IMG/VR virus record: IMGVR_UViG_3300046057_000051
Length of the DNA: 64,000 nt
Direction: 5' to 3' (one strand)
Source of the DNA: a virus
Below, piece after piece: positions 3,180-48,640 of the stretch; position 1 is the stretch's first letter, and every line of letters begins with the position of its first letter. A program made the position numbers and the translations under genes. The notes beneath the pieces are model-generated. The model saw nothing but the letters and a program-made list of their open reading frames with translations. It ran no database searches and was not told where the DNA came from.

Positions 3180-3986
3180 CTACGGGCGTATCTCGCCGGC
3201 GTCCACCTGGACCCGGTAGTTGTACCACTGCCGGGGCAGGTTCGGGTTCGTGTTCGTCAGCGGCCCGTACTGGACGACGGCGCGTTTGTAGCCGGCACCT
3301 TCGAGCATGTCCAGCACGGTGTTATCGTCCTGCACCGGGCGGACGTGGTAGGTCTGGGCGCGCCCGATTACGTCGATGGTCTGGCTCCCCCCGCTCTGGT
3401 TGTTGAACCCGAAGTAGAAACGGTTCGGGCCGTCCTGCTCGCTGTCGATGCGGATGATTCCCTGGTCGGTTTTTTCCGACAGCGCGGTCGTCGGCATCGC
3501 CGCGTCGGTCGAGACGCTCGGGCTATCGACGTATGTGTAGTCGGAGAGGACGCCTGCCCGCTGGGGCAAATCGTCCGCTGAGAGGCCGCGGCCGCGGTCC
3601 TCGCCTTCGGCGAGGCCGTCGAGTACGTCGCCGTCGCCGGTCTGGACGCCGACGTATACGCCGTCCTGCGGGACGCCGAACGTCCACTCCTGGATGGTGC
3701 GGTCGCGCTCCTGTTGGATGGAGAACACCTCGTCGCCGGGGCTGTTCGTGTCCCGCGAGAACCCGTCCTCGCCGAACCAGCCGAACTCCTTGATGCTGTC
3801 GTCGGCGATGGTGAAGGCGTCGAACACGCGCTCGACGCGCCTGACGGAGCGTGCCACCTGGAAGGCGATGACGTTGATTGCGTTACGGTCCGACGTGCCG
3901 TAGGTCAGGACGATGTTGTCCCAGTTCCGGCTGAACACGTCGGTTGCGGCGGGGAACGTGGAGTCGTATCTGTGTGATGGCTCCAT
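3180..3986 (-). CDS. Hypothetical beta-rich protein, possibly structural
   Basis: Acidic coding segment starting MEPSHRYDSTF (ATG 3986) inside the 3180-4373 ORF; the upstream part overlaps the 4028-4498 gene. Confidence 0.7.
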   Translation of the reverse strand: MEPSHRYDSTFPAATDVFSRNWDNIVLTYGTSDRNAINVIAFQVARSVRRVERVFDAFTIADDSIKEFGWFGEDGFSRDTNSPGDEVFSIQQERDRTIQEWTFGVPQDGVYVGVQTGDGDVLDGLAEGEDRGRGLSADDLPQRAGVLSDYTYVDSPSVSTDAAMPTTALSEKTDQGIIRIDSEQDGPNRFYFGFNNQSGGSQTIDVIGRAQTYHVRPVQDDNTVLDMLEGAGYKRAVVQYGPLTNTNPNLPRQWYNYRVQVDAGEIRP

Positions 3987-12438: not shown

Positions 12439-14118
12439 ATGGAGGAAGTGGACCCGGTTCATTATGACGCCATAGACGACGTGGTAGAGGACAGGAAAGA
12501 CGCCTCCGAGTGGGACCCGGACAAGATGCGCTCCGCGCTCATCGACGTGGCGCGCGGAGAAAACCAGCGCACCGTCGCGGAGGACCACGAGTTCTCGCAA
12601 GGCGTCGTGTCCAAGCGATGGACTGACGTGGAGGAGCGCGCCGAAGAAATCCGGGCGTCCCGGAACGAGGGCTCGCGGCTGTTCCGCGACCCGCTGGAGG
12701 AGGCCATCGAGGAGTTCGGGGATTTCTTCGAGGAGATGGACGAGAACTACAACATGGGCATCAGGGATGTCGCCATCCAGATGATGGTTGACGAGATACG
12801 TGACGCCCAGCAGTTGCCCTCGCCGATGTACCTCCAGCAGTTTCTCAACGGCGCGAACTCCGGCGTCACCGGCCAGGACGTGGAGTACATCAGTCGCCGG
12901 TACAAGGCGTGGCTCGAAAACTACAAGGGCGAGCGAACGGCCACCCAAGGCATGGGTGGCGGCATGGACGAGTACGGCGGCGCCGCCATCCAGGAAAACC
13001 GCCAGCAGCCGGGCGGCATGTCGGGTGGGGTCGATGTCGGGTACAACCAGTCGATGTTCCCCGACGACGGCGGGAACCAGCAGGCCCAGGGTAACTCCGG
13101 GGGCAACGCGCGGATAAACCGATTGGAGCAGAAGGTCGAGCGGCTGACCGAAGCAATCGAGAAGGACCACGCCGGCGGTGACGACTCCCAGACGGTCCGC
13201 GTCGAGCAGGACGACGGCTCCATCATCGAGGTTCCACTCGACCACCCGATGGCGATGCAGATGATGAGTGGCGGGGACGACGATGACGACATGCTCGAAA
13301 AGCTCACGGAGTTGAAAGAAGCGGGGCTGGTATTGGGGCCGGAGGACCTGCGCGAACACGGCGACGACGGCGGCGAGATGGCCGACGCTATCGCTGGCGC
13401 CATCGAGCAGATGAGTCAGCGACAGATGCAGGCCCAACAACAGATGAGCGAGAACTTCTCCAGCGCCATCGAGGACATCCGAGAGATGCAGGAGGAGGAG
13501 GACGACGCCCTGACGATGACGGACGTACAGCAGGTCATCGAGGACACGCTCAAGGAGGACGAAGTGGACCGCCTCGAACGCCAACTGGAGGACATGCGGT
13601 CGTCGTTCACGAAAGAGCTACGCGATGCGAAACGGTACGGCAGCGACGGTATCGAGGACCCGGAGTACCTCAAGACCGACCGCAAGATGGAGTTCCAGGA
13701 GAAGCAACTGGAAACCATCAACGACAACCTCCGCCAACTCCCGAAAGAAGTCGGCGTCACCGTCCGCGAGGCGCTCGTGCCCGCGTTCAAGGAACTCCAG
13801 CACTCCACGCCCGGCGAAGGCCACCCGCTCTGGAACCCGCCGGGGGGACAGGGCCAAAGCGAGCCCGGGTTCGTTCCGCCGACCGTCACGGAACCAACCC
13901 AGCAGGAACGCCAACCGCAACGGCCGGCGCCGGAGCCCGACCGGGACCGCGGCTACCCCGAGCCGGAACCCGAGCCCGAACCGGAGCCACGGACGGAGCC
14001 GGAGTCCCAGGGCATGGGCCAGCAGCAGCCCGAGCGCGACACAGCGCAGAAGGGCCGGGAGGTTCGTGAGAAGCTCGGTCTCGAAGATGCCGGCGACAAC
14101 CAGCAGGTAGAAGCATGA
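12439..14118 (+). CDS. Acidic coiled-coil protein with N-terminal HTH and PE-repeat tail
   Basis: HTH-like QRTVAEDHEFSQGVVSKRW; long heptad-like segments; PEPEPEPEP tail; CTTATGAA box about 25 nt upstream. Confidence 0.8.
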   Translation: MEEVDPVHYDAIDDVVEDRKDASEWDPDKMRSALIDVARGENQRTVAEDHEFSQGVVSKRWTDVEERAEEIRASRNEGSRLFRDPLEEAIEEFGDFFEEMDENYNMGIRDVAIQMMVDEIRDAQQLPSPMYLQQFLNGANSGVTGQDVEYISRRYKAWLENYKGERTATQGMGGGMDEYGGAAIQENRQQPGGMSGGVDVGYNQSMFPDDGGNQQAQGNSGGNARINRLEQKVERLTEAIEKDHAGGDDSQTVRVEQDDGSIIEVPLDHPMAMQMMSGGDDDDDMLEKLTELKEAGLVLGPEDLREHGDDGGEMADAIAGAIEQMSQRQMQAQQQMSENFSSAIEDIREMQEEEDDALTMTDVQQVIEDTLKEDEVDRLERQLEDMRSSFTKELRDAKRYGSDGIEDPEYLKTDRKMEFQEKQLETINDNLRQLPKEVGVTVREALVPAFKELQHSTPGEGHPLWNPPGGQGQSEPGFVPPTVTEPTQQERQPQRPAPEPDRDRGYPEPEPEPEPEPRTEPESQGMGQQQPERDTAQKGREVREKLGLEDAGDNQQVEA

Positions 14119-14936
14119 TACTTCAAGAAGTACCACAAATCGTACTCGTAGCGTCAGGAAAGGGCGGCGTCGGCAAAACGACGGTCGCGTCCGACATCGC
14201 CCGGCAGGCAACCGAACACGTCGAGAGCGTCGGGTTCATCGACGCTGACATCTCGACGCCGAACAGCCTCCAGGTCATCGGCGGCGAGGAGGTAGACATC
14301 TCGAACGAGCGGCTCGCATCCAGCGACTCGCTCGTCCCACCGGAGGTCGATGGCGTGCAACTCGTGTCACAGGGGCTCGTGCTGCCGGACGACGTGCCCG
14401 TGCTGCGCGGCGCCGAGTGGCGCGCGGAGGCGGTCGCCGACTACATCCAGAACGTCGAGTGGGACGACGGGACGGAAGTCATCGTCATCGACTCCCCGCC
14501 GGGCTCGGGCGAGGAACTCCAAGTCGTCGCCTCGGCGGTGCCGCTGGACTACGCCTACGTCGTCTCCACGCCACACCCGAGCGCGGTCCGGGACGCCACC
14601 AAGACCCACGAGTTCTTCAAGCAAGCGAACGTTCCGCACTCCGGCGTCCTGAACATGTCCGAGATAACCGCCGGCGACATCGTAGACCACGCGACCGCGG
14701 GCGCGAACTTCACGGACATCGACGGTGTGGGCGACGCGACGGACGAACGCATCCGCGAGGTACTGTCGGCGTCCACCGAGAACTATCCGCTGTTCGGCTA
14801 CGACGACGACGGCCTCCCGGATTTCGGCACGGAAATCGAGGCCGTTCTCCCGTACACGGAGAGCTTCGAGCGGCGGCGGGCGGCGTGGGGCACGGTCGTC
14901 CGCGACCTCCTCCAGCGGGAGGAGGTGGCGGCATGA
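14115..14936 (+). CDS. Mrp/NBP35/ParA-like P-loop ATPase with a helix-hairpin-helix insertion
   Basis: Deviant Walker A SGKGGVGKTT, IDADISTPN, IDSPPG, VVSTP; HhH-like IDGVGDATDERI; no CxxC. Confidence 0.85.
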   Translation: MILQEVPQIVLVASGKGGVGKTTVASDIARQATEHVESVGFIDADISTPNSLQVIGGEEVDISNERLASSDSLVPPEVDGVQLVSQGLVLPDDVPVLRGAEWRAEAVADYIQNVEWDDGTEVIVIDSPPGSGEELQVVASAVPLDYAYVVSTPHPSAVRDATKTHEFFKQANVPHSGVLNMSEITAGDIVDHATAGANFTDIDGVGDATDERIREVLSASTENYPLFGYDDDGLPDFGTEIEAVLPYTESFERRRAAWGTVVRDLLQREEVAA

Positions 14937-15712: not shown

Positions 15713-16615
15713 ATGCCCACCCAAGCAGAGTTCGATGCGTTCGAGGAATACTACGCGGAGGCGAAACAGCGGATAGACGACCGGCTGGACGAAATCATCG
15801 AGACCGAGGAGGGCTTCGCCGGCAAGCGGAGAATCCTCTCGCACGCCGCACAGGGCGGGAAGCGCGTTCGCCCCGTCCTGACGATGCTCGTCGCCGACGT
15901 GTACGGCGTCCCCTACGACAAGGCACTCGACCACGCCGCCATCGTGGAACTCATCCACCTCGCGTCGCTGGTCGCCGACGACAGGTACGACGGCGACGCA
16001 ACCCGTCGCGGCGCCCCGGCGCTGTGGAAAATTCTGGAGAAACTCCCGTTCGGCCGAAAGGGCCACAAGGTCACGACCGGCCTCACCGTGATGGCGGAGA
16101 ACGGGTTGATGGCGCTCGCACTCGAACTCGCCGACGACCCCGACGTGGTGCAAGCGATGGGCCACGGTACCCGCCACCTCGTGGACGGGTTCTTCGCCGA
16201 GGGCCAGAACTTCACGTGGGGGCTCCTCGGCGGCGGGTACGACAAGTACGTCGAAATCAACCGGATGAAAACCGGCGGGTTGTTCGGGATGGCCGCCTGG
16301 ATGCCCGCGACCTACGTGAGCGTCCCAGCCGAACAGGAGGACGCCGCCCGCAAGTACGGTGAGGAGACGGGTATCCTGTATCAAGTCACGGACGACATCG
16401 CTGACGGCGACATCCCGTCGTTCATCAAGGACGACAACGCGGAGTTAGAGAAGTGGTACGGTAACGCGACGGCGTGGGTCCAGAACATGCCGGACCACGA
16501 GAAAACCTCGATGATGGAGACGGCGCCGGCGTGGATGGTTTATAAGATGGCGTCCAACGGGTCGATTCTGGACGAGGTAGACGTATCTTTCATCCCGGCC
16601 GAGACAACAGGGTAA
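15713..16615 (+). CDS. Polyprenyl diphosphate synthase (IdsA/GGPP-synthase-like)
   Basis: GGKRVRP, ELIHLASLVADD..D...RRG (first Asp-rich motif), KTGGLF, GILYQVTDD (second Asp-rich motif). Confidence 0.9.
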   Translation: MPTQAEFDAFEEYYAEAKQRIDDRLDEIIETEEGFAGKRRILSHAAQGGKRVRPVLTMLVADVYGVPYDKALDHAAIVELIHLASLVADDRYDGDATRRGAPALWKILEKLPFGRKGHKVTTGLTVMAENGLMALALELADDPDVVQAMGHGTRHLVDGFFAEGQNFTWGLLGGGYDKYVEINRMKTGGLFGMAAWMPATYVSVPAEQEDAARKYGEETGILYQVTDDIADGDIPSFIKDDNAELEKWYGNATAWVQNMPDHEKTSMMETAPAWMVYKMASNGSILDEVDVSFIPAETTG

Positions 16616-23580: not shown

Positions 23581-24480
23581 CTACTGGTTGGCCCAGTCGG
23601 GGACCTCGATGCCGACCATCCGCGCGTACCTGTTCGTCATGCTTGGATGCTGGTGTCTGGAGCGGCGGTACACTTGGCCGAACACGTCACCGTCGGGGTC
23701 CATGTCCTCGAACTCGTGAGGGTTCTCCAGTCGGTGGAGGATGGGTGTGTGGCGGCCGAACGAGTGAACGCCGGCCTCGTGGTGGTTCCGACGGAAGTGC
23801 GTAGACCACGATTCGGGCTTCCAACCGTTCCCGTAGGTGTTGGTGAACACGACATCATTGGGGTCGCGCTCCCGGATGAGGCGGTCCAGGTGGCTCATCG
23901 CCCTGCTCCCGACCGAGAGGCGAGCCGGGTGGCCGCCCTTGACGGTTCGGACGTAGAGGGTGTCCGCCCCACGGTCGATGTCCTCCCGTCTGATAGCCGT
24001 CAGTTCGGCCGCACGGAGGATGCAGTCGTAGGTGATGGCGAGGGCGGCGGCACAGCACGGGCAGTCGCACGCGGCCGGTGCGTTCTCGATGGCGCGGTCT
24101 ACGTCGTCCGTCGAGAGGTAGTTCGGCGCGAAGGGGTCCGGCTCGCCGGAGACCATGTTCTGTACCTCCTCGGGGACTTCGCGGTCGTAGTTGAGACGGT
24201 ACCAGAGCTTGACGGCCGACAGCGCAACTCGGCGGGAGCGGTACGCATAGCTGTCGGGCGGCTGTCGGCCGCGGCCGTTGACCCACGGGTAGTCGGGGAG
24301 GTCGCTGTCGGCGAGCATCTGGTCGAAGTCGTAGAGCCAGCCGGTTTCGGGGTCGCCGCCGGGCCGCCACATCTCGAAGCGACGAATCCAGAGTTGGTAC
24401 ATGTCATACGTCTTGTCGCCGATGCGCGTCCCGACGACCCGGTTCTCGAACGTGTCGAGCGCGTCGTCAACTGCTGACAT
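23581..24480 (-). CDS. Tyrosine recombinase (XerA/integrase family)
   Basis: ILRAAEL (Arg), VKGG (Lys), HSFGRH (His/Arg), RHQHPSMTNRY (His/Tyr); 299 aa. Confidence 0.9.
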   Translation of the reverse strand: MSAVDDALDTFENRVVGTRIGDKTYDMYQLWIRRFEMWRPGGDPETGWLYDFDQMLADSDLPDYPWVNGRGRQPPDSYAYRSRRVALSAVKLWYRLNYDREVPEEVQNMVSGEPDPFAPNYLSTDDVDRAIENAPAACDCPCCAAALAITYDCILRAAELTAIRREDIDRGADTLYVRTVKGGHPARLSVGSRAMSHLDRLIRERDPNDVVFTNTYGNGWKPESWSTHFRRNHHEAGVHSFGRHTPILHRLENPHEFEDMDPDGDVFGQVYRRSRHQHPSMTNRYARMVGIEVPDWANQ

Positions 24481-28293: not shown

Positions 28294-28554
28294 ATGCGCG
28301 ACATACCCTGCGCCAAGTGTGGCGAACCGTACTCCCTGTACGCGCTCCGGCACGACGTGGCCGAGTGGGACGACCAGCCGGACGACGCGGCGGAGAAGTT
28401 CCAGTCGGGCGACGGCTGCCCCACCTGCGAGTGGGGCGACAAAGCCGGCGACGTGTCGGTGTCGCGGTTCAAGGGGGAAACGGAACTGGAGGCCGAACAC
28501 ATGAAGGGCGTCATGCGGGAGTCCGACGAGGACCCGCTGAAGTACCTGCCCTGA
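28294..28554 (+). CDS. Array ORF 4, Zn-finger protein
   Basis: CAKCGEP...CPTCEWG. Confidence 0.8.
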   Translation: MRDIPCAKCGEPYSLYALRHDVAEWDDQPDDAAEKFQSGDGCPTCEWGDKAGDVSVSRFKGETELEAEHMKGVMRESDEDPLKYLP

Positions 28555-28624
28555 CCGGCGCCGGCGCGACCGCCGGACACCGGCGTTAAGCCGGTTCAGC
28601 CCCGAGAGGGGAGTGACCACCGCT

Positions 28625-29167
28625 ATGAGCGACCAACTCGACACGGACCTCGGCGTCCGCTACACGGAGCGGCCCAAACACCTACCCACCGACCACTCGG
28701 AGTTCGACCCGCCGACCGCGTGGGTGAACTATTGGGACATGAACCCCGTCGCACACGGCGGGAAGTACGTCACCTGGACGGGGCGGGCGTGGCGGGTCGT
28801 AGAGGTGGGTCCGCCGTCCATGTGGGATGAGCCGGAACACATAGTCACGCGGTACAGGTTCCGCCCGGCGGACGTATGGGTTGACCCGAGCGACCCGTGG
28901 ACGGACTTCGCGGACGACATGAAGCGGATACTCCGGTCCCTCGGCGACGAGCATCACCTGCCCGTCGCCCCGCCGTTCCTCGGCAGCGTGACGTACTACG
29001 TGGCCGACCTCACGCACTACCGTAGCGTCCGACACGAAACGTTTGAGATAGACGACGGCGACGTGGACGCCTACTGGTCGCACGTCTCCGGCTACGACGT
29101 TGACCCGTCCGAGGTCCAGAACGTGTCCGAGCGCGACCTGCCGGACGACGCAATCAGCGACGACTGA
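28625..29167 (+). CDS. Array ORF 5, paralog of ORF 6
   Basis: Shares DPSDPWTDFADDMKR.LRS.GDEHHLPV with the next ORF. Confidence 0.85.
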   Translation: MSDQLDTDLGVRYTERPKHLPTDHSEFDPPTAWVNYWDMNPVAHGGKYVTWTGRAWRVVEVGPPSMWDEPEHIVTRYRFRPADVWVDPSDPWTDFADDMKRILRSLGDEHHLPVAPPFLGSVTYYVADLTHYRSVRHETFEIDDGDVDAYWSHVSGYDVDPSEVQNVSERDLPDDAISDD

Positions 29168-40135: not shown

Positions 40136-40180
40136 GGTGGCCCCCACGGGCCACCACGGCCCCGAGAGGGGCGTGAAACG

Positions 40181-40615
40181 ATGGACGAGCCAGACCACGA
40201 ATCCACCATCGAAGCCAGACTCGACGAACTACGCGACAACAGCGGCCAGAGCTACATACTCGCCGGGAGCGCCGCCGAGATACTCCGACCGTTCCGCACC
40301 GACGTGACGCGGGAGTTCGTCGTCGAACACACGCTGTCCGACGCCGATGACGTGGATGTCGAGCCCTCGGACTACAACGGCTTGCTCGCACTCCACGGCG
40401 CCCTGGAAGCCAAACAACGGTCGTCCCGCGAAGCGCGCGGCATCACGAGCGTCCACGCGCACAAGATGCTCGTCACGTACTCGGACGTGTCCGCCATCAT
40501 CGTCGAGGCGCTCGGCGGCGAGCCGAGCGACTACACCGCCGGCGGCCACGGGTTCACGGCCGACGGCCGACACGAGGAGAACGTCGAGGCGATTGTCGAA
40601 CGCCTCGACGAGTAG
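40181..40615 (+). CDS. Array ORF 29, hypothetical
   Basis: ATG 4 nt after GTGA. Confidence 0.8.
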   Translation: MDEPDHESTIEARLDELRDNSGQSYILAGSAAEILRPFRTDVTREFVVEHTLSDADDVDVEPSDYNGLLALHGALEAKQRSSREARGITSVHAHKMLVTYSDVSAIIVEALGGEPSDYTAGGHGFTADGRHEENVEAIVERLDE

Positions 40616-42869: not shown

Positions 42870-44186
42870 ATGACGACCAACACCCCACCATCGACGATGG
42901 ACGGCCTGCTCGCGCTCTCCAAAGGGGAGGCGCTGGAGATAGAGGCGTTGTGCTGGCGTGGCGACCTCTCCATCAAGCGAGTCACCAAACACATGGTCCG
43001 CGTCCTCGCCGACGAGATGACGTGGGACGGCCGCGAGAACAGCCAGTCGCTCCGCGGCGTCTGGTACAGCGGCGTCAAACAAGTGTACCAACACCTGTTC
43101 CCCGAGAAGTGGGCAGACGACCACTACACGGAGCCGCCGTCGCGCCGCTTCTCACAGTCGCTCTCCGAATACACCTCCGAACTGGTGAAGGAGGGCGAAC
43201 TCACGTATCGGGACATCAACGTCGTGGACGACTCCCGCGACCGGGAGATACTCGGCACCGACGCCGTCGAACACGACAAAATCCTGTTCGTGGAGAAGCG
43301 CGCGAAATACCGACAGTTAGCCCCTATCAGCGACGTGCTGGAAGTGTCGCTCGTGTCGGGCGGCGGCTGGCAGGCGACGGCGCTCATCGAGGACCTCGCC
43401 AACGTCCTCGACCCGACCAACACGTACACCATCTTCATCCTCACGGACTTCGACCCCACGGGCTACCGTATCGCCGAGGACTTCCAGTCGCGCGCCGAAA
43501 CCCTCGGGGTGAACGTCGAGGGCGTCGAGCGCATCGGCATCGAGCCCGAACAGGTCACGACGGAAGTCGCCGAGGCCGAACGGTTCGAGGTGCCCGTCGA
43601 GAGCGATTACGACGAACGCTGGCTCGACACCCACGGCATCGAGGACGACCACGACGACCCCCGGTACGGGTTGGAACTGGAAGCCATCGGCGGCCGCGAC
43701 TCTGCCGCCCAGGACTTCCGGCGCGTCGTCGTCGAAGCCCTCGACCCCCATTTGCGGAAGCGGCGTCGGCGGTCGCGGGACCTCAACATCGAGACGGCGA
43801 ACGTCGTCGGCCGCGGCGTGGACGACCTCGTCGATGACATGACCGAGCAGTTGACCGCGGCGCTCAAAGAGTACGCCATCGCCGAGTTGCGCGACCACGA
43901 CGCCGTCGAGCGGTTGACCTACCGTCGCGGGGACGACACCGTGACGGCGGCCGTGGACCTTGCGGAGCGCGAGGGCGGTGACGACGACCGTATCCCCCAC
44001 CCGCTGGCGTGGGGCACCTACTCGTCGGCGGCCATCGACCCGGACACGACGGAGTCGGGCGACATCGTGTCGCCGCGGCCGCCGCGCGACGAACAGGTCC
44101 GCCGCCTCCAGCGGCAGCTTGCGGCAGAGATGGACGACCCCGACGGCGACATCGACGTAACGGACCTGTTGGACCTCGACGTGTAA
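42870..44186 (+). CDS. Topoisomerase VI subunit A/Spo11-like TOPRIM protein
   Basis: LRGVWY (candidate catalytic Tyr region), LFVEKR, SGGG, LTDFDPTG (DxD), VERIGI, LELEAI. Confidence 0.75.
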   Translation: MTTNTPPSTMDGLLALSKGEALEIEALCWRGDLSIKRVTKHMVRVLADEMTWDGRENSQSLRGVWYSGVKQVYQHLFPEKWADDHYTEPPSRRFSQSLSEYTSELVKEGELTYRDINVVDDSRDREILGTDAVEHDKILFVEKRAKYRQLAPISDVLEVSLVSGGGWQATALIEDLANVLDPTNTYTIFILTDFDPTGYRIAEDFQSRAETLGVNVEGVERIGIEPEQVTTEVAEAERFEVPVESDYDERWLDTHGIEDDHDDPRYGLELEAIGGRDSAAQDFRRVVVEALDPHLRKRRRRSRDLNIETANVVGRGVDDLVDDMTEQLTAALKEYAIAELRDHDAVERLTYRRGDDTVTAAVDLAEREGGDDDRIPHPLAWGTYSSAAIDPDTTESGDIVSPRPPRDEQVRRLQRQLAAEMDDPDGDIDVTDLLDLDV

Positions 44187-44976: not shown

Positions 44977-45030
44977 CTGCCGGGACGGCCCGGCGGTCGC
45001 CGGGGCTGCCCCGAGAGGGGCGTGGTTCCG

Positions 45031-45447
45031 ATGGAAACCGAAGGACGGTACGACTGTGCGACCTGTGGCGAACCGCTCAACATCGTCGGCATCCTCCGCC
45101 ACGATTGCGACCGCGTCCTGTCGGCGGCGAACATCACACCCGGCGAGCAGGACACGCTGCTGTACGTCGAGACGCGGGTCGTGGAACACGAGGGTGTCCT
45201 GAACCTCTGGCAGATGAACTACGACGACCAGCAGAACCTCAAGTTGTCCGGTGCCGCCGGCATCCTCGACGTGAGCGAGGACCCGAATCCCTACGAGGAC
45301 GAAATGTGCGTCGAGGCGTTCACCGAGCGGGCGTGGGACCTCGCCGGTGAGTCCCGGTGGCTCCGTGCCGCGCGGAACATGGATGGTGACGTGGTGGACG
45401 CGGATGTGCTGGCTGACCGGCTGGGGGTGGCGTCCGTCCCGCCGTAG
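45031..45447 (+). CDS. Array ORF 39, protein with N-terminal Cys/His motif
   Basis: CATCGEP...HDC; last motif-associated ORF. Confidence 0.8.
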   Translation: METEGRYDCATCGEPLNIVGILRHDCDRVLSAANITPGEQDTLLYVETRVVEHEGVLNLWQMNYDDQQNLKLSGAAGILDVSEDPNPYEDEMCVEAFTERAWDLAGESRWLRAARNMDGDVVDADVLADRLGVASVPP

Positions 45448-45515: not shown

Positions 45516-45527
45516 TATCTTTATGCC
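45516..45527 (+). promoter_or_regulatory. Putative TATA box upstream of the tRNA
   Basis: TATCTTTATG in GC-rich non-coding DNA between the array end and the tRNA. Confidence 0.35.
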
Positions 45528-45638: not shown

Positions 45639-45788
45639 AGCCCTGTAGTGTAGCGGCCAAACACCCCGGCCCTTGAACGGGACCGCCCGACGCTGCTCGC
45701 ACACCAGCGCCGGGTTGCACCATCCCCGGTCCCCCCGGGCGGCCCCGGACGAAAGCCGGCGCCCGAGGTTCAAATCCTCGCAGGGCTA
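45639..45788 (+). tRNA. tRNA-Gln(UUG)-like gene with a 77-nt intron at position 37/38
   Basis: Acceptor AGCCCTG/CAGGGCT (A1-U72), D arm GTGT/ACAC, anticodon stem CCGGC/GCCGG, TTG at 45673-45675, T arm CGAGG-TTCAAAT-CCTCG, intron 45677-45753 with bulge-helix-bulge geometry. C at position 33; CCA not encoded. Confidence 0.85.
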
Positions 45789-45831: not shown

Positions 45832-46077
45832 ATGACAGACAACAACGCACCCGACGGCACCGAAATCGTCGTCGCGCGCGACTACGAGAACGACGCCGTC
45901 GTCGTCGAAACCCCGAACCACGAACAACGACTCGCCCCCACCGCAGCGCGACAGTTCGCCAACCTCATGGAAGTCGGCGATAAACTCCCCGCCTCGCCGT
46001 TCAGCGGCACCGGCCGCCTCGCCGACGAACTCAAACGCGCCGCCGACGACGTAGCGGACGCCGAGGGCAGCGAATGA
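45832..46077 (+). CDS. Hypothetical protein
   Basis: MTDNNAPDG start at 45832. Confidence 0.7.
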   Translation: MTDNNAPDGTEIVVARDYENDAVVVETPNHEQRLAPTAARQFANLMEVGDKLPASPFSGTGRLADELKRAADDVADAEGSE

Positions 46078-47077: not shown

Positions 47078-47173
47078 ACGGACGCGGGCCCCTCCGAGTC
47101 GGTAACGCAGGGTGCATCTCCCTGCGGGGGCGTCTGGTTCCCGGTCATCCACCGGAAAAACCGGGTGGTACCT

Positions 47174-48640
47174 ATGGAGACGACTGACGACACCCACGCC
47201 GGCTCGGCGGCCGGCAGCGACGACGAGCGCATCGGCGGGCAACCAATCGACGGCGACGGACACTACCCGTTCGCGGGCCTCTCCAGATACGACGAGGACG
47301 TGGACGCGCTGGCGCTCCCGGAGGGCGTCTGGAGCGACACGTCCTCGATGAATCACTGGGCACAGACCAAACGCGGCGTCGAGCGCGACCTCGACGCGGG
47401 CGTCCTCCCGGAGCGCGGCCTCAACACCATCATCCCCGAACTCCCCCGCGCGAACCACGCCCAGGCGGCGTGGATACACCCCCGCACCGGGACGGTCTAC
47501 CGGACCGGCAAGCACAACGCCGTCATCGACCCCGAGCGAGCCGAGGCGGCCGTCGATGGCTACGGCAGCTACCCGGAAGCCATCGCCGACGTGACCGGCC
47601 GCGACCAGACGACCGTCGAATCGGACCTCGCGGAGATGTCGCTGGACGACTACATGGACGAGTGCCTCGTCGAGAGCCAGCGCGAATCGGTCGAGGACGC
47701 CGGCGTCGGCGACGACGCCCTGTTCCAAATCGCGGGCGAGGACCACTCCATCATCAACCCCCAGCAGCCGATGGAGGAACTCGTCGCCGAACTCCAGGCG
47801 CGCGACTACGCCGACAAAGTGTTCGGCGAAGTCACCATCGACCGCGACGGCGGCCGCGGGACCCTGGACGCCTACATCGACGGCAACCACGTCGAATCCC
47901 CCGTGTTCGCCGACGAGCGCGAACCCGTCGTCGTCGGCATCCAACTCCAGTGGTCGTTCTTCGACGACTGGGCGTTCCGCGTCTGCGGCCAGGGCCTCGA
48001 CTGGCACTGCACGAACCACATCCATCGCTTGACGGACCGCGAAACCGTCAGGTACGCCGGCGACATCGAGCGCCGCGTCGATTGGCGCGAGATGTTCAGC
48101 GACGTACTCGACCGGCTCGACGAGAAAACCGACCAACTCGCCCGCATCATCCAGGCAGCAGCGGACGAGACGCTGGACTTCAACGACCTCCCCGCCGACC
48201 TCGACGCCGAGTTCAGCGACGAGGAGGCGGCGCCGTGGACGGCCCTGTACGCCTACCTCGGGCTCCCGAACTATCTCGCCCGCCACGCCGGCCCCCGGTT
48301 GCGCTCGCAGGCCGGCGATGCGTATGAGCCGGACTGGTGGGAAATCCATTCCGCGGCGACGTATGCGGTCTCCCACCACGACCAGGGCGACCGGACGGCG
48401 GGTGGGTCGTTCGAGGACCACGCCCGCGTGGCGAACGACATGCTGTTCAACCCCGCCCGGATGGAGGACCGCGTCGTCGAGAACTACGAGGCTGACCGGC
48501 GGACAGACGACCAGGGGACGCTCGCCGAGGAGGACGGCGGCACCGCGGAGATACGGACGGCGTTCGAGGACACCCGCGAGAAACAGCAGCGGTTCGAGGA
48601 GTGGGAGGCGGAGTTGAAAGAGATGGGCGTCGAGGTGTAA
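47174..48640 (+). CDS. DUF932/DUF945-like domain protein
   Basis: HSIINPQ, GIQLQWS...CTNH, WWEIHSAATYAVSH resemble the family pattern. Confidence 0.55.
   Translation: METTDDTHAGSAAGSDDERIGGQPIDGDGHYPFAGLSRYDEDVDALALPEGVWSDTSSMNHWAQTKRGVERDLDAGVLPERGLNTIIPELPRANHAQAAWIHPRTGTVYRTGKHNAVIDPERAEAAVDGYGSYPEAIADVTGRDQTTVESDLAEMSLDDYMDECLVESQRESVEDAGVGDDALFQIAGEDHSIINPQQPMEELVAELQARDYADKVFGEVTIDRDGGRGTLDAYIDGNHVESPVFADEREPVVVGIQLQWSFFDDWAFRVCGQGLDWHCTNHIHRLTDRETVRYAGDIERRVDWREMFSDVLDRLDEKTDQLARIIQAAADETLDFNDLPADLDAEFSDEEAAPWTALYAYLGLPNYLARHAGPRLRSQAGDAYEPDWWEIHSAATYAVSHHDQGDRTAGGSFEDHARVANDMLFNPARMEDRVVENYEADRRTDDQGTLAEEDGGTAEIRTAFEDTREKQQRFEEWEAELKEMGVEV

Follow-up and report, generated by a model that had tools for sequence, protein, structure and literature searches.

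Archaeal viruses and plasmids are known to carry tRNA genes, but these have received little study, and an intron has been reported for just one published tRNA of a halovirus. The stretch of DNA considered here, 64,000 nucleotides of the IMG/VR virus record IMGVR_UViG_3300046057_000051 (hereafter the window), carries at positions 45639-45788 of its + strand a tRNA-Gln(UUG) gene that is split by an intron and is unusual in two respects, having C at position 33 and a mismatch in the bulge-helix-bulge (BHB) motif recognized by the archaeal splicing endonuclease EndA. What kind of gene is this, and could a haloarchaeal host make a working tRNA from it? A preliminary description of this DNA had considered it a divergent functional tRNA, a decoy against anticodon nucleases, or a boundary or integration landmark. 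In our best reading, the locus is an intron-containing tRNA-Gln(UUG) gene the splicing of which is made uncertain by an uncompensated mismatch. As to its role, we lean, on balance, towards a maintained, element-borne gene of a haloarchaeal tailed-virus lineage, the transcript of which would be spliced by the host into a working tRNA.

Results

A complete but split tRNA gene

Read from the sequence, the locus would yield a mature tRNA of 73 nt from the following parts:

45639..45676, + strand, tRNA-Gln(UUG) exon 1 (from sequence and RF00005 alignment): acceptor 5' strand, D arm, anticodon-stem 5' strand, loop positions 32-37
45677..45753, + strand, intron of 77 nt between positions 37 and 38
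45754..45788, + strand, tRNA-Gln exon 2: A38, anticodon-stem 3' strand, variable loop, T arm, acceptor 3' strand, A73

The cloverleaf is complete, as the preliminary description had it, and all 21 of its stem pairs are Watson-Crick. The acceptor stem (AGCCCUG/CAGGGCU) opens with A1-U72, the mark read by GatDE in archaeal tRNA-Gln charging, and ends in the discriminator A73; CCA is not encoded. U8 and A9 lead into a D stem, GUGU/ACAC, that encloses the D loop AGCGGCCAA and is followed by C26. The anticodon stem is CCGGC/GCCGG and its loop runs C32 C33 U34 U35 G36 A37, intron, A38, C33 falling on 45672 and TTG, the anticodon, on 45673-45675. The variable loop, CGCC, includes a rare C46, and the T arm reads CGAGG-UUCAAAU-CCUCG, its loop fitting UUCRAAU. 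The rest of the conserved core (U8, A14, G18 and G19, G15-C48, G53-C61) is also present. The Rfam model RF00005 matches at exactly 45639-45788 with a score of 34.2 bits (cut-off 29, E 2e-5, model positions 1-71 covered), and its alignment handles the middle 77-81 bases as an insertion, in agreement with the 77-nt intron at 37/38 that had been proposed and that the sequence and the BHB search described below likewise support. Judged by this score and by full-length likeness to other tRNA-Gln(UUG) genes, the gene is beyond chance.

To see the RF00005 match, a stretch of 601 nt had to be searched under permissive filters, and Rfam scans of the whole window missed the gene, as their filters lose a split gene. 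ARAGORN, which had been suggested as a check, made no call in its default mode; in intron mode it did call the locus but mis-read it as Lys(cuu), an implausible parse with a 24-nt variable arm that we rejected, and it was Rfam that confirmed the gene. These misses and the mis-parse explain how a split gene of this sort can stay unannotated.

The splice motif

By the canonical BHB rule, the central helix is formed by tRNA positions 32-35 and the 3' end of the intron, and the cut falls after the second base of each bulge (PMC4307357). Under this rule, the window precursor takes on the 3-4-3 geometry, with the 5-bp anticodon stem as its outer helix and these further parts, the two bulges being placed by the BHB fold and the motif search:

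45671..45674, + strand, central helix 5' strand, CCUU (tRNA positions 32-35), partner 45748-45751
45748..45751, + strand, central helix 3' strand, GACG, with C45750 opposite C33
45675..45677, + strand, 5' splice-site bulge, G36 A37 / A (slash, splice site)
45752..45754, + strand, 3' splice-site bulge, A A / A38
45678..45689, + strand, inner (h') helix 5' strand, CGGG, an unpaired A and CCGCCCG, partner 45736-45747
45736..45747, + strand, inner (h') helix 3' strand, CGGGCGG, an unpaired C and CCCG

Both 3-nt bulges and the flanking helix CGGG.CCGCCC/GGGCGG.CCCG had been recognized in the preliminary description and are indeed there; the helix in question is the inner one, the outer being the anticodon stem. 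It consists of 4 + 7 bp around a 1x1 mismatch and forms in free and in BHB-constrained folds. The base pairs that close the two bulges are both intact, the helices on either flank have considerable length and are rich in GC, and the motif has several features of a strict hBHBh' motif: the 37/38 position, two opposed 3-nt bulges four positions apart and flanks of at least 2 bp. The C-C mismatch claimed for the 4-bp central helix also appears in the BHB fold. As there is an A on either side of the boundary, the intron could be slid by sequence, and it was placed by the BHB rule.

When all 150 nt were searched exhaustively for motifs of the 3-4-3 type, sixteen loose candidates came up, as expected for GC-rich sequence, and the motif described here is the sole one of these that has long helices on its flanks and leaves a product of 73 nt. 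The rival BHB-like sites have 2-bp flanks and the wrong product length, and the sequence holds no other splice register that would give U33 or a different anticodon. The intron itself is GC-rich; in its fold, a helix of 11 bp closes the structure and two small hairpins lie within.

Upkeep of the tRNA body

For comparison, at least 120 archaeal tRNA-Gln(UUG) genes from one metagenome scan were reduced to 66 distinct 73-nt sequences; counts drawn from this set, here and below, are counts among the matches listed. The search pattern fixed the D loop, so that D-loop identity with all 120 follows from the pattern. Over all 73 nt, the spliced window tRNA is 77-84% identical to other archaeal or viral tRNA-Gln(UUG) genes, and it has A1, U72 and A73 in common with 65 of the 66 distinct comparators. 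The nearest of them (L038, 84% identical) sits in a tRNA cluster like those of large archaeal viruses. Rare bases occupy four positions, all single-stranded:

position 33, C in the window, shared with 1 of 66 distinct comparators
position 37, A in the window, shared with 6 of 66
position 46, C in the window, shared with 2 of 66
position 57, A in the window, shared with 5 of 66

Changes in the stems are compensated. Compared with the tRNA-Gln of the halovirus HSTV-2 (56/73 identical), four stem pairs are changed on both sides with pairing kept, and compared with host-type haloarchaeal tRNA-Gln (52-53/73 identical, or 71-73%), six are. A similar coherence is seen in the 13-22-46 triple, which takes just three forms among 71 distinct sequences listed: U.G with A46 (35 sequences), U.U with A46 (32) and U-A with C46 (4). 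The window tRNA has U13-A22 with C46, and the other three genes of this kind (on L139, an IMG/VR viral contig, and on L136 and L046) all lie in virus-type tRNA clusters. On this pattern, C46 is coherent tertiary covariation and not decay. Because these relatives and the nearest neighbour L038 sit in virus-type tRNA clusters, we assign the window gene to a virus-type tRNA-Gln lineage, and it looks to be under purifying selection. From its sequence, we are dealing very probably with a real gene that has been maintained and has not decayed.

One of the contigs just named, L136 (metagenomic, GC 0.41), packs 33 tRNA genes into approximately 8.5 kb (L136:3144-11654), the first being its U13-A22-C46 tRNA-Gln(UUG). 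It looks like the kind of tRNA island that large viruses of archaea, or elements similar to them, carry.

Position 33

The C that had been reported at position 33, in place of a near-invariant U, is confirmed (45672); on the comparisons made here, it is unusual but not without precedent in nature. Of the 120 archaeal tRNA-Gln(UUG) genes listed, three have C33 (L117, L125 and L058), as does tRNA-Cys(GCA) of the Sulfolobales (PMC7668247), and in all of these, as in the window, C33 stands in an otherwise normal tRNA. The L117 gene, which scores 53.7 bits, has the same loop as the window, CCUUGAA, and lies on a contig with cellular-looking genes (its neighbours are glycosyltransferases, Trm112 and an M48 peptidase). 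The loop of the L125 gene is also CCUUGAA, and the L058 gene combines C33 with an intron at 37/38. However, the three genes come from low-GC archaeal sources, and whereas C33 in the window faces C, that of L058 faces G and its pair is kept.

Introns at a non-canonical position were also seen on low-GC metagenome contigs, L125 and L050, where they appear as an insertion in the T arm or loop of tRNA-Gln(UUG).

Relatives in haloarchaea and haloviruses

Haloferax volcanii has three intron-bearing tRNAs, among them a tRNA-Gln(UUG), HVO_0864_T, with a 31-nt intron (PMC7714728). Host-type tRNA-Gln genes with introns of 29-31 nt are also found on the saline metagenome contigs L033, L047, L067 and L094. 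The introns of these four and of seven other archaeal tRNA-Gln genes mostly start with ACG and end like GGAAGAC/A (slash, intron boundary); that of the window starts with ACG and ends with GGACGAA/A. That the window intron and natural tRNA-Gln introns match in position and in their boundary words is consistent with descent from a common source. In haloarchaeal chromosomal tRNA-Gln(UUG) we find the same anticodon, A1-U72, D loop, 73-nt mature length, 37/38 intron and 3-4-3 BHB, whereas compensated changes set its acceptor, anticodon and T stems apart from those of the window. The window intron is also longer, at 77 nt versus 29-31 nt, its loop has C33 and A37 where the host type has U33 and G37, and its C.C stands where the host type has U33-A.

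The first 22 nt of the window tRNA recur in other archaeal tRNA-Gln genes. A comparison of the 3' half with host tRNA-Gln, which the preliminary description had called for, gave no host match: among 185,579 species genomes, the last 22 nt of exon 2 (the 3' 22-mer) had no haloarchaeal match and were identical in two DPANN tRNA-Gln genes only.

Among viruses, the Mincapvirus haloviruses HSTV-2, HRTV-7, HRTV-11 and HCTV-6/15 (Hafunaviridae) have a 73-nt tRNA-Gln(UUG) that is 73-77% identical to that of the window. The acceptor stem and D loop of the HSTV-2 tRNA are identical to those of the window tRNA, and HRTV-7 and HRTV-11 are off at one or two acceptor pairs. A protein gene is shared as well, since window 47165-48640 has a homologue in the Mincapvirus genomes. 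However, their tRNA-Gln is intron-less and has the standard loop CUUUGGA, and these are tailed viruses, whereas no capsid or terminase gene was found in the window open reading frames (ORFs) scanned. A tblastx comparison of HSTV-2 with the window around the tRNA-Gln gave mostly compositional noise and was not used.

The halovirus HGTV-1 has one intron-bearing tRNA gene (PMC13532342), likewise a mobile-element gene relying on archaeal tRNA splicing, to which we liken the window gene by description only. Hafunaviruses, which are haloarchaeal tailed viruses, encode RtcB (PMC8651126); unlike them, the window has no RtcB or RNA ligase that could be found in its larger ORFs. We found no relatives of the element by DNA in phage and plasmid collections, and IMG/VR gave no match to the tRNA 3' end and no relatives of three neighbouring proteins.

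Some haloarchaeal plasmids, including pNG600 of Haloarcula marismortui, carry near-identical tRNA-Glu(CUC) genes with the same T arm as the window tRNA (L004:1490-1568, L013:293-371, L014:291-367 and L015:293-371). The plasmid tables omit RNA genes, and no feature is listed there.

Position in the element

The tRNA gene lies right at the end of a one-way gene array, as had been claimed. The array is marked by a hairpin tag, CCCCGAGAGGGG, with 44 matches to the 12-mer within one mismatch on the + strand between 27197 and 45020, where 1.3 would be expected by chance. The immediate surroundings are:

45009..45020, + strand, last hairpin tag copy, end of the array
45022..45447, + strand, last tagged ORF and upstream neighbour, 141 amino acids, weak PHROG 15089 match
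45519..45525, + strand, TATA-like word CTTTATG, a possible distal promoter approximately 115-120 nt ahead of the mature 5' end
45832..46077, + strand, first ORF of an untagged downstream row, 81 amino acids, starting 44 nt past the tRNA

The tRNA begins 191 nt after the stop of the last tagged ORF, and CTTTATG is the only TATA-like word in this spacer. GC-rich archaeal tRNA-Gln comparators have TATA-like words approximately 30-35 nt upstream, and in one of them (L090) the word is identical, CTTTATG. No T-run terminator was found between the tRNA and ORF 45832-46077.

Further afield, the window encodes an MCM/AAA-like ATPase and glycosyltransferases, as well as:

444-1283, PAPS-reductase-like gene
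14115-14936, ParA/Mrp-like gene
15713-16615, polyprenyl synthetase gene
23581-24480, Xer-like tyrosine recombinase, the only one in the window, 21 kb from the tRNA
42870-44186, Toprim-like ORF, 438 amino acids, weak PHROG match 'DNA topoisomerase' (Toprim region), 1.4 kb upstream of the tRNA
47165-48640, 491-amino-acid protein, PHROG 13083, the homologue of which is found in Mincapvirus

Of these, the PAPS-reductase-like, ParA/Mrp-like, polyprenyl synthetase and Xer-like genes are of the accessory and maintenance sort seen on plasmids. The ORFs scanned (the larger ones, and the small ones in part) gave no recognizable virion gene, with neither capsid nor terminase, and no EndA or RtcB. By its gene content, the element looks like a plasmid-like or virus-related one of haloarchaea, and the description of the tRNA as element-encoded is supported by this context.

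The hairpin tag occurs on two IMG/VR contigs only, and neither carries the window tRNA. The IMG/VR contig L009 (4.9 kb) has the tag ahead of a homologue of tagged ORF 40181-40615; its stretch 3311-3763 aligns with window 40160-40606 at 47% amino acid identity over 89 residues and is a distant relative of one array cassette. On an unrelated viral contig of IMG/VR (L140:12691-13667), one tag word lies approximately 125 nt upstream of a tRNA cluster with five genes (Gly, Thr, Leu, Arg and Ile). Within the window, the intron mode of ARAGORN also called a 'tRNA-Tyr(gta)' at 28551-28695 (- strand) that overlaps a hairpin tag; with stems rich in G.U pairs and an extended variable arm, this is almost certainly a false positive.

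Discussion

The divergent functional tRNA is the best supported of the three readings put forward in the preliminary description, in view of the perfect, compensated stems, the 13-22-46 covariation, the Gln identity marks and the intron boundary words; of its function itself, we can propose the following course. Transcription would follow the gene rows on either side in direction and would start at a distal promoter or come from read-through. A long leader or read-through is probable because the TATA-like word lies approximately 115-120 nt upstream and not 30-35. RNase P and tRNase Z would then excise the tRNA from the long transcript, and the same cuts would part the transcripts of the two modules. 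Host EndA would cleave at the two 3-nt bulges and RtcB would join the exons; we propose the host enzymes because no splicing enzyme of the element's own was found in the larger ORFs scanned. After addition of CCA, the tRNA would be charged by the archaeal route, with GluRS followed by GatDE reading A1-U72, and despite C33 it may decode CAA (and CAG) in the genes of the element.

Several observations weigh against such a maintained and working tRNA. The central helix consists of C32-G, C33.C, U34-A and U35.G, so that three of its four positions are paired, short of the four pairs of a strict motif, and the haloarchaeal alpha2 endonuclease is said to be strict in requiring hBHBh' (PMC7714728, citing Thompson and Daniels 1990). 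A mismatch in this helix was found in none of the 10 natural tRNA-Gln(UUG) introns listed that were folded alike and in none of 12 judged by sequence; there, the base opposite position 33 is A, once G, and the 3' strand is GAAG, once GAGG. Holding the window precursor in the BHB fold costs 8.2 kcal/mol, compared with 1.5-6.9 in the natural comparators. U33 is present in 65 of the 66 distinct comparators and absent here; no TATA-like word lies within 110 nt upstream, unlike in host-type genes; and Gln codon use in the 78 predicted ORFs (100 CAA and 330 CAG, CAA 23%), which says little by itself, points to no special need for this tRNA. The signs of upkeep are themselves limited, as a freshly disabled gene would still have a perfect body. 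Splicing by a strict haloarchaeal enzyme is thus uncertain, because the C.C mismatch is without precedent in the natural introns compared, and sequence cannot decide the matter. There is one parallel from elsewhere in the archaea: pre-tRNA-Met(CAU-1) of Sulfolobus tokodaii has central-helix mismatches, yet is cut correctly in vitro (PMC4307357). The likeness lies in a mismatched 4-bp helix offset by longer flanks; the difference is that the crenarchaeal endonuclease is relaxed in specificity, compared with the strict haloarchaeal alpha2 enzyme.

The same observations could mean that the gene has recently been crippled or is poorly spliced, being a poor EndA substrate or a poor decoder, and that it persists as neutral baggage, or because its acceptor and T arms go on serving RNase P and tRNase Z as a processing signal where the transcript of the tagged array meets the downstream operon. 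We regard this as somewhat doubtful, though far from negligible. The C.C mismatch, unique among the 10-12 natural introns, the highest BHB cost seen and the reported strictness of Haloferax EndA (PMC7714728) all fit it, as do the gathering of four rare states at single-stranded or BHB positions (33, its partner, 37 and the 3' bulge), the lack of a proximal promoter word, and the placing of the tRNA exactly at a module boundary with no terminator ahead of the next ORF. However, there is not one defect in 21 stem pairs, the tertiary covariation is coherent, the bulge-closing pairs are intact between very strong flanking helices, and C33 occurs with the same loop in the apparently cellular tRNA-Gln gene of L117. 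Alternatively, the tRNA-Gln gene might be a carrier and the intron its cargo, released by host EndA and RtcB as a stable RNA of 77 nt, probably circular, that has its own function. It is 2.5 to 4 times as long as the 20-31-nt introns of host-type haloarchaeal tRNA-Gln; but its fold is no better than that of shuffled sequence (z-score -1.14), it matched no Rfam family besides tRNA, no box C/D words were found in it, it has no similarity or complementarity elsewhere in the window beyond chance, and the imperfect BHB would hamper its release, so that we think this unlikely. It is very unlikely, in our estimation, that C33, A37 and the uncompensated C.C have been selected rather than tolerated, whether because the tRNA-Gln(UUG) evades an anticodon nuclease directed at tRNA-Gln (a host defence, or the Toprim-like protein of the element acting in takeover or addiction) or because a weak BHB throttles splicing and ties the supply of the tRNA and of the 77-nt intron RNA to host EndA.

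The proposal of a decoy against anticodon nucleases, or of a nuclease-resistant tRNA in which C33 and A37 evade a host or element nuclease that depletes tRNA-Gln(UUG), did not hold up well, and we consider it highly improbable. Rare bases do flank the anticodon on both sides (33 and 37), a Toprim-like ORF lies 1.4 kb upstream (42870-44186), and phage tRNAs counter the retron and PARIS Toprim nucleases (PMC11555353, PMC12409363). Phage tRNAs are also described in which the anticodon loop is altered at nuclease sites (PMC10264068); like the window tRNA, they are mobile-element tRNAs that differ from those of the host next to the anticodon, but they are bacterial, and position 33 is not known to us to be among the sites reported. 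Against this, neither the Toprim-like ORF nor its neighbours had a defence or nuclease match in Pfam, NCBIfam or PADLOC (the last covering ten neighbouring ORFs), and the ORF itself matched nothing in the three; the related viral tRNA-Gln genes keep the ordinary loop CUUUGGA; and the identical loop is found on the cellular-looking contig L117. We know of no haloarchaeal tRNA-Gln nuclease. As for a landmark, the place at the end of the hairpin array stands, whereas integration at the tRNA, as target or junction of a site-specific event, appears extremely improbable. Haloarchaeal proviruses mostly integrate in tRNA genes (PMC8651126) and this gene does mark a module boundary; however, it is complete and not a fragment, no second copy of its 3'-end 22 nt lies in the 64 kb within 3 mismatches, no integrase adjoins it (the sole tyrosine recombinase being that at 23581-24480), none of the haloarchaeal species genomes scanned has its 3' 22-mer, its identity to host-type tRNA-Gln is 71-73%, and both flanks look like mobile-element DNA.

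We return to the maintained, probably host-spliced tRNA-Gln(UUG). The gene shows that a virus-type tRNA-Gln lineage can have a host-like kind of intron, and because the intron is of the host type, use of the element's tRNA would depend on host EndA and RtcB. The window gene is also a natural test of two supposedly strict rules, namely U33 and a fully paired central helix for the haloarchaeal alpha2 endonuclease. If it is not spliced or used, it would offer a snapshot of a mobile-element tRNA gene entering decay; if it is both spliced and used, the two rules would be looser in haloarchaea than has been stated.

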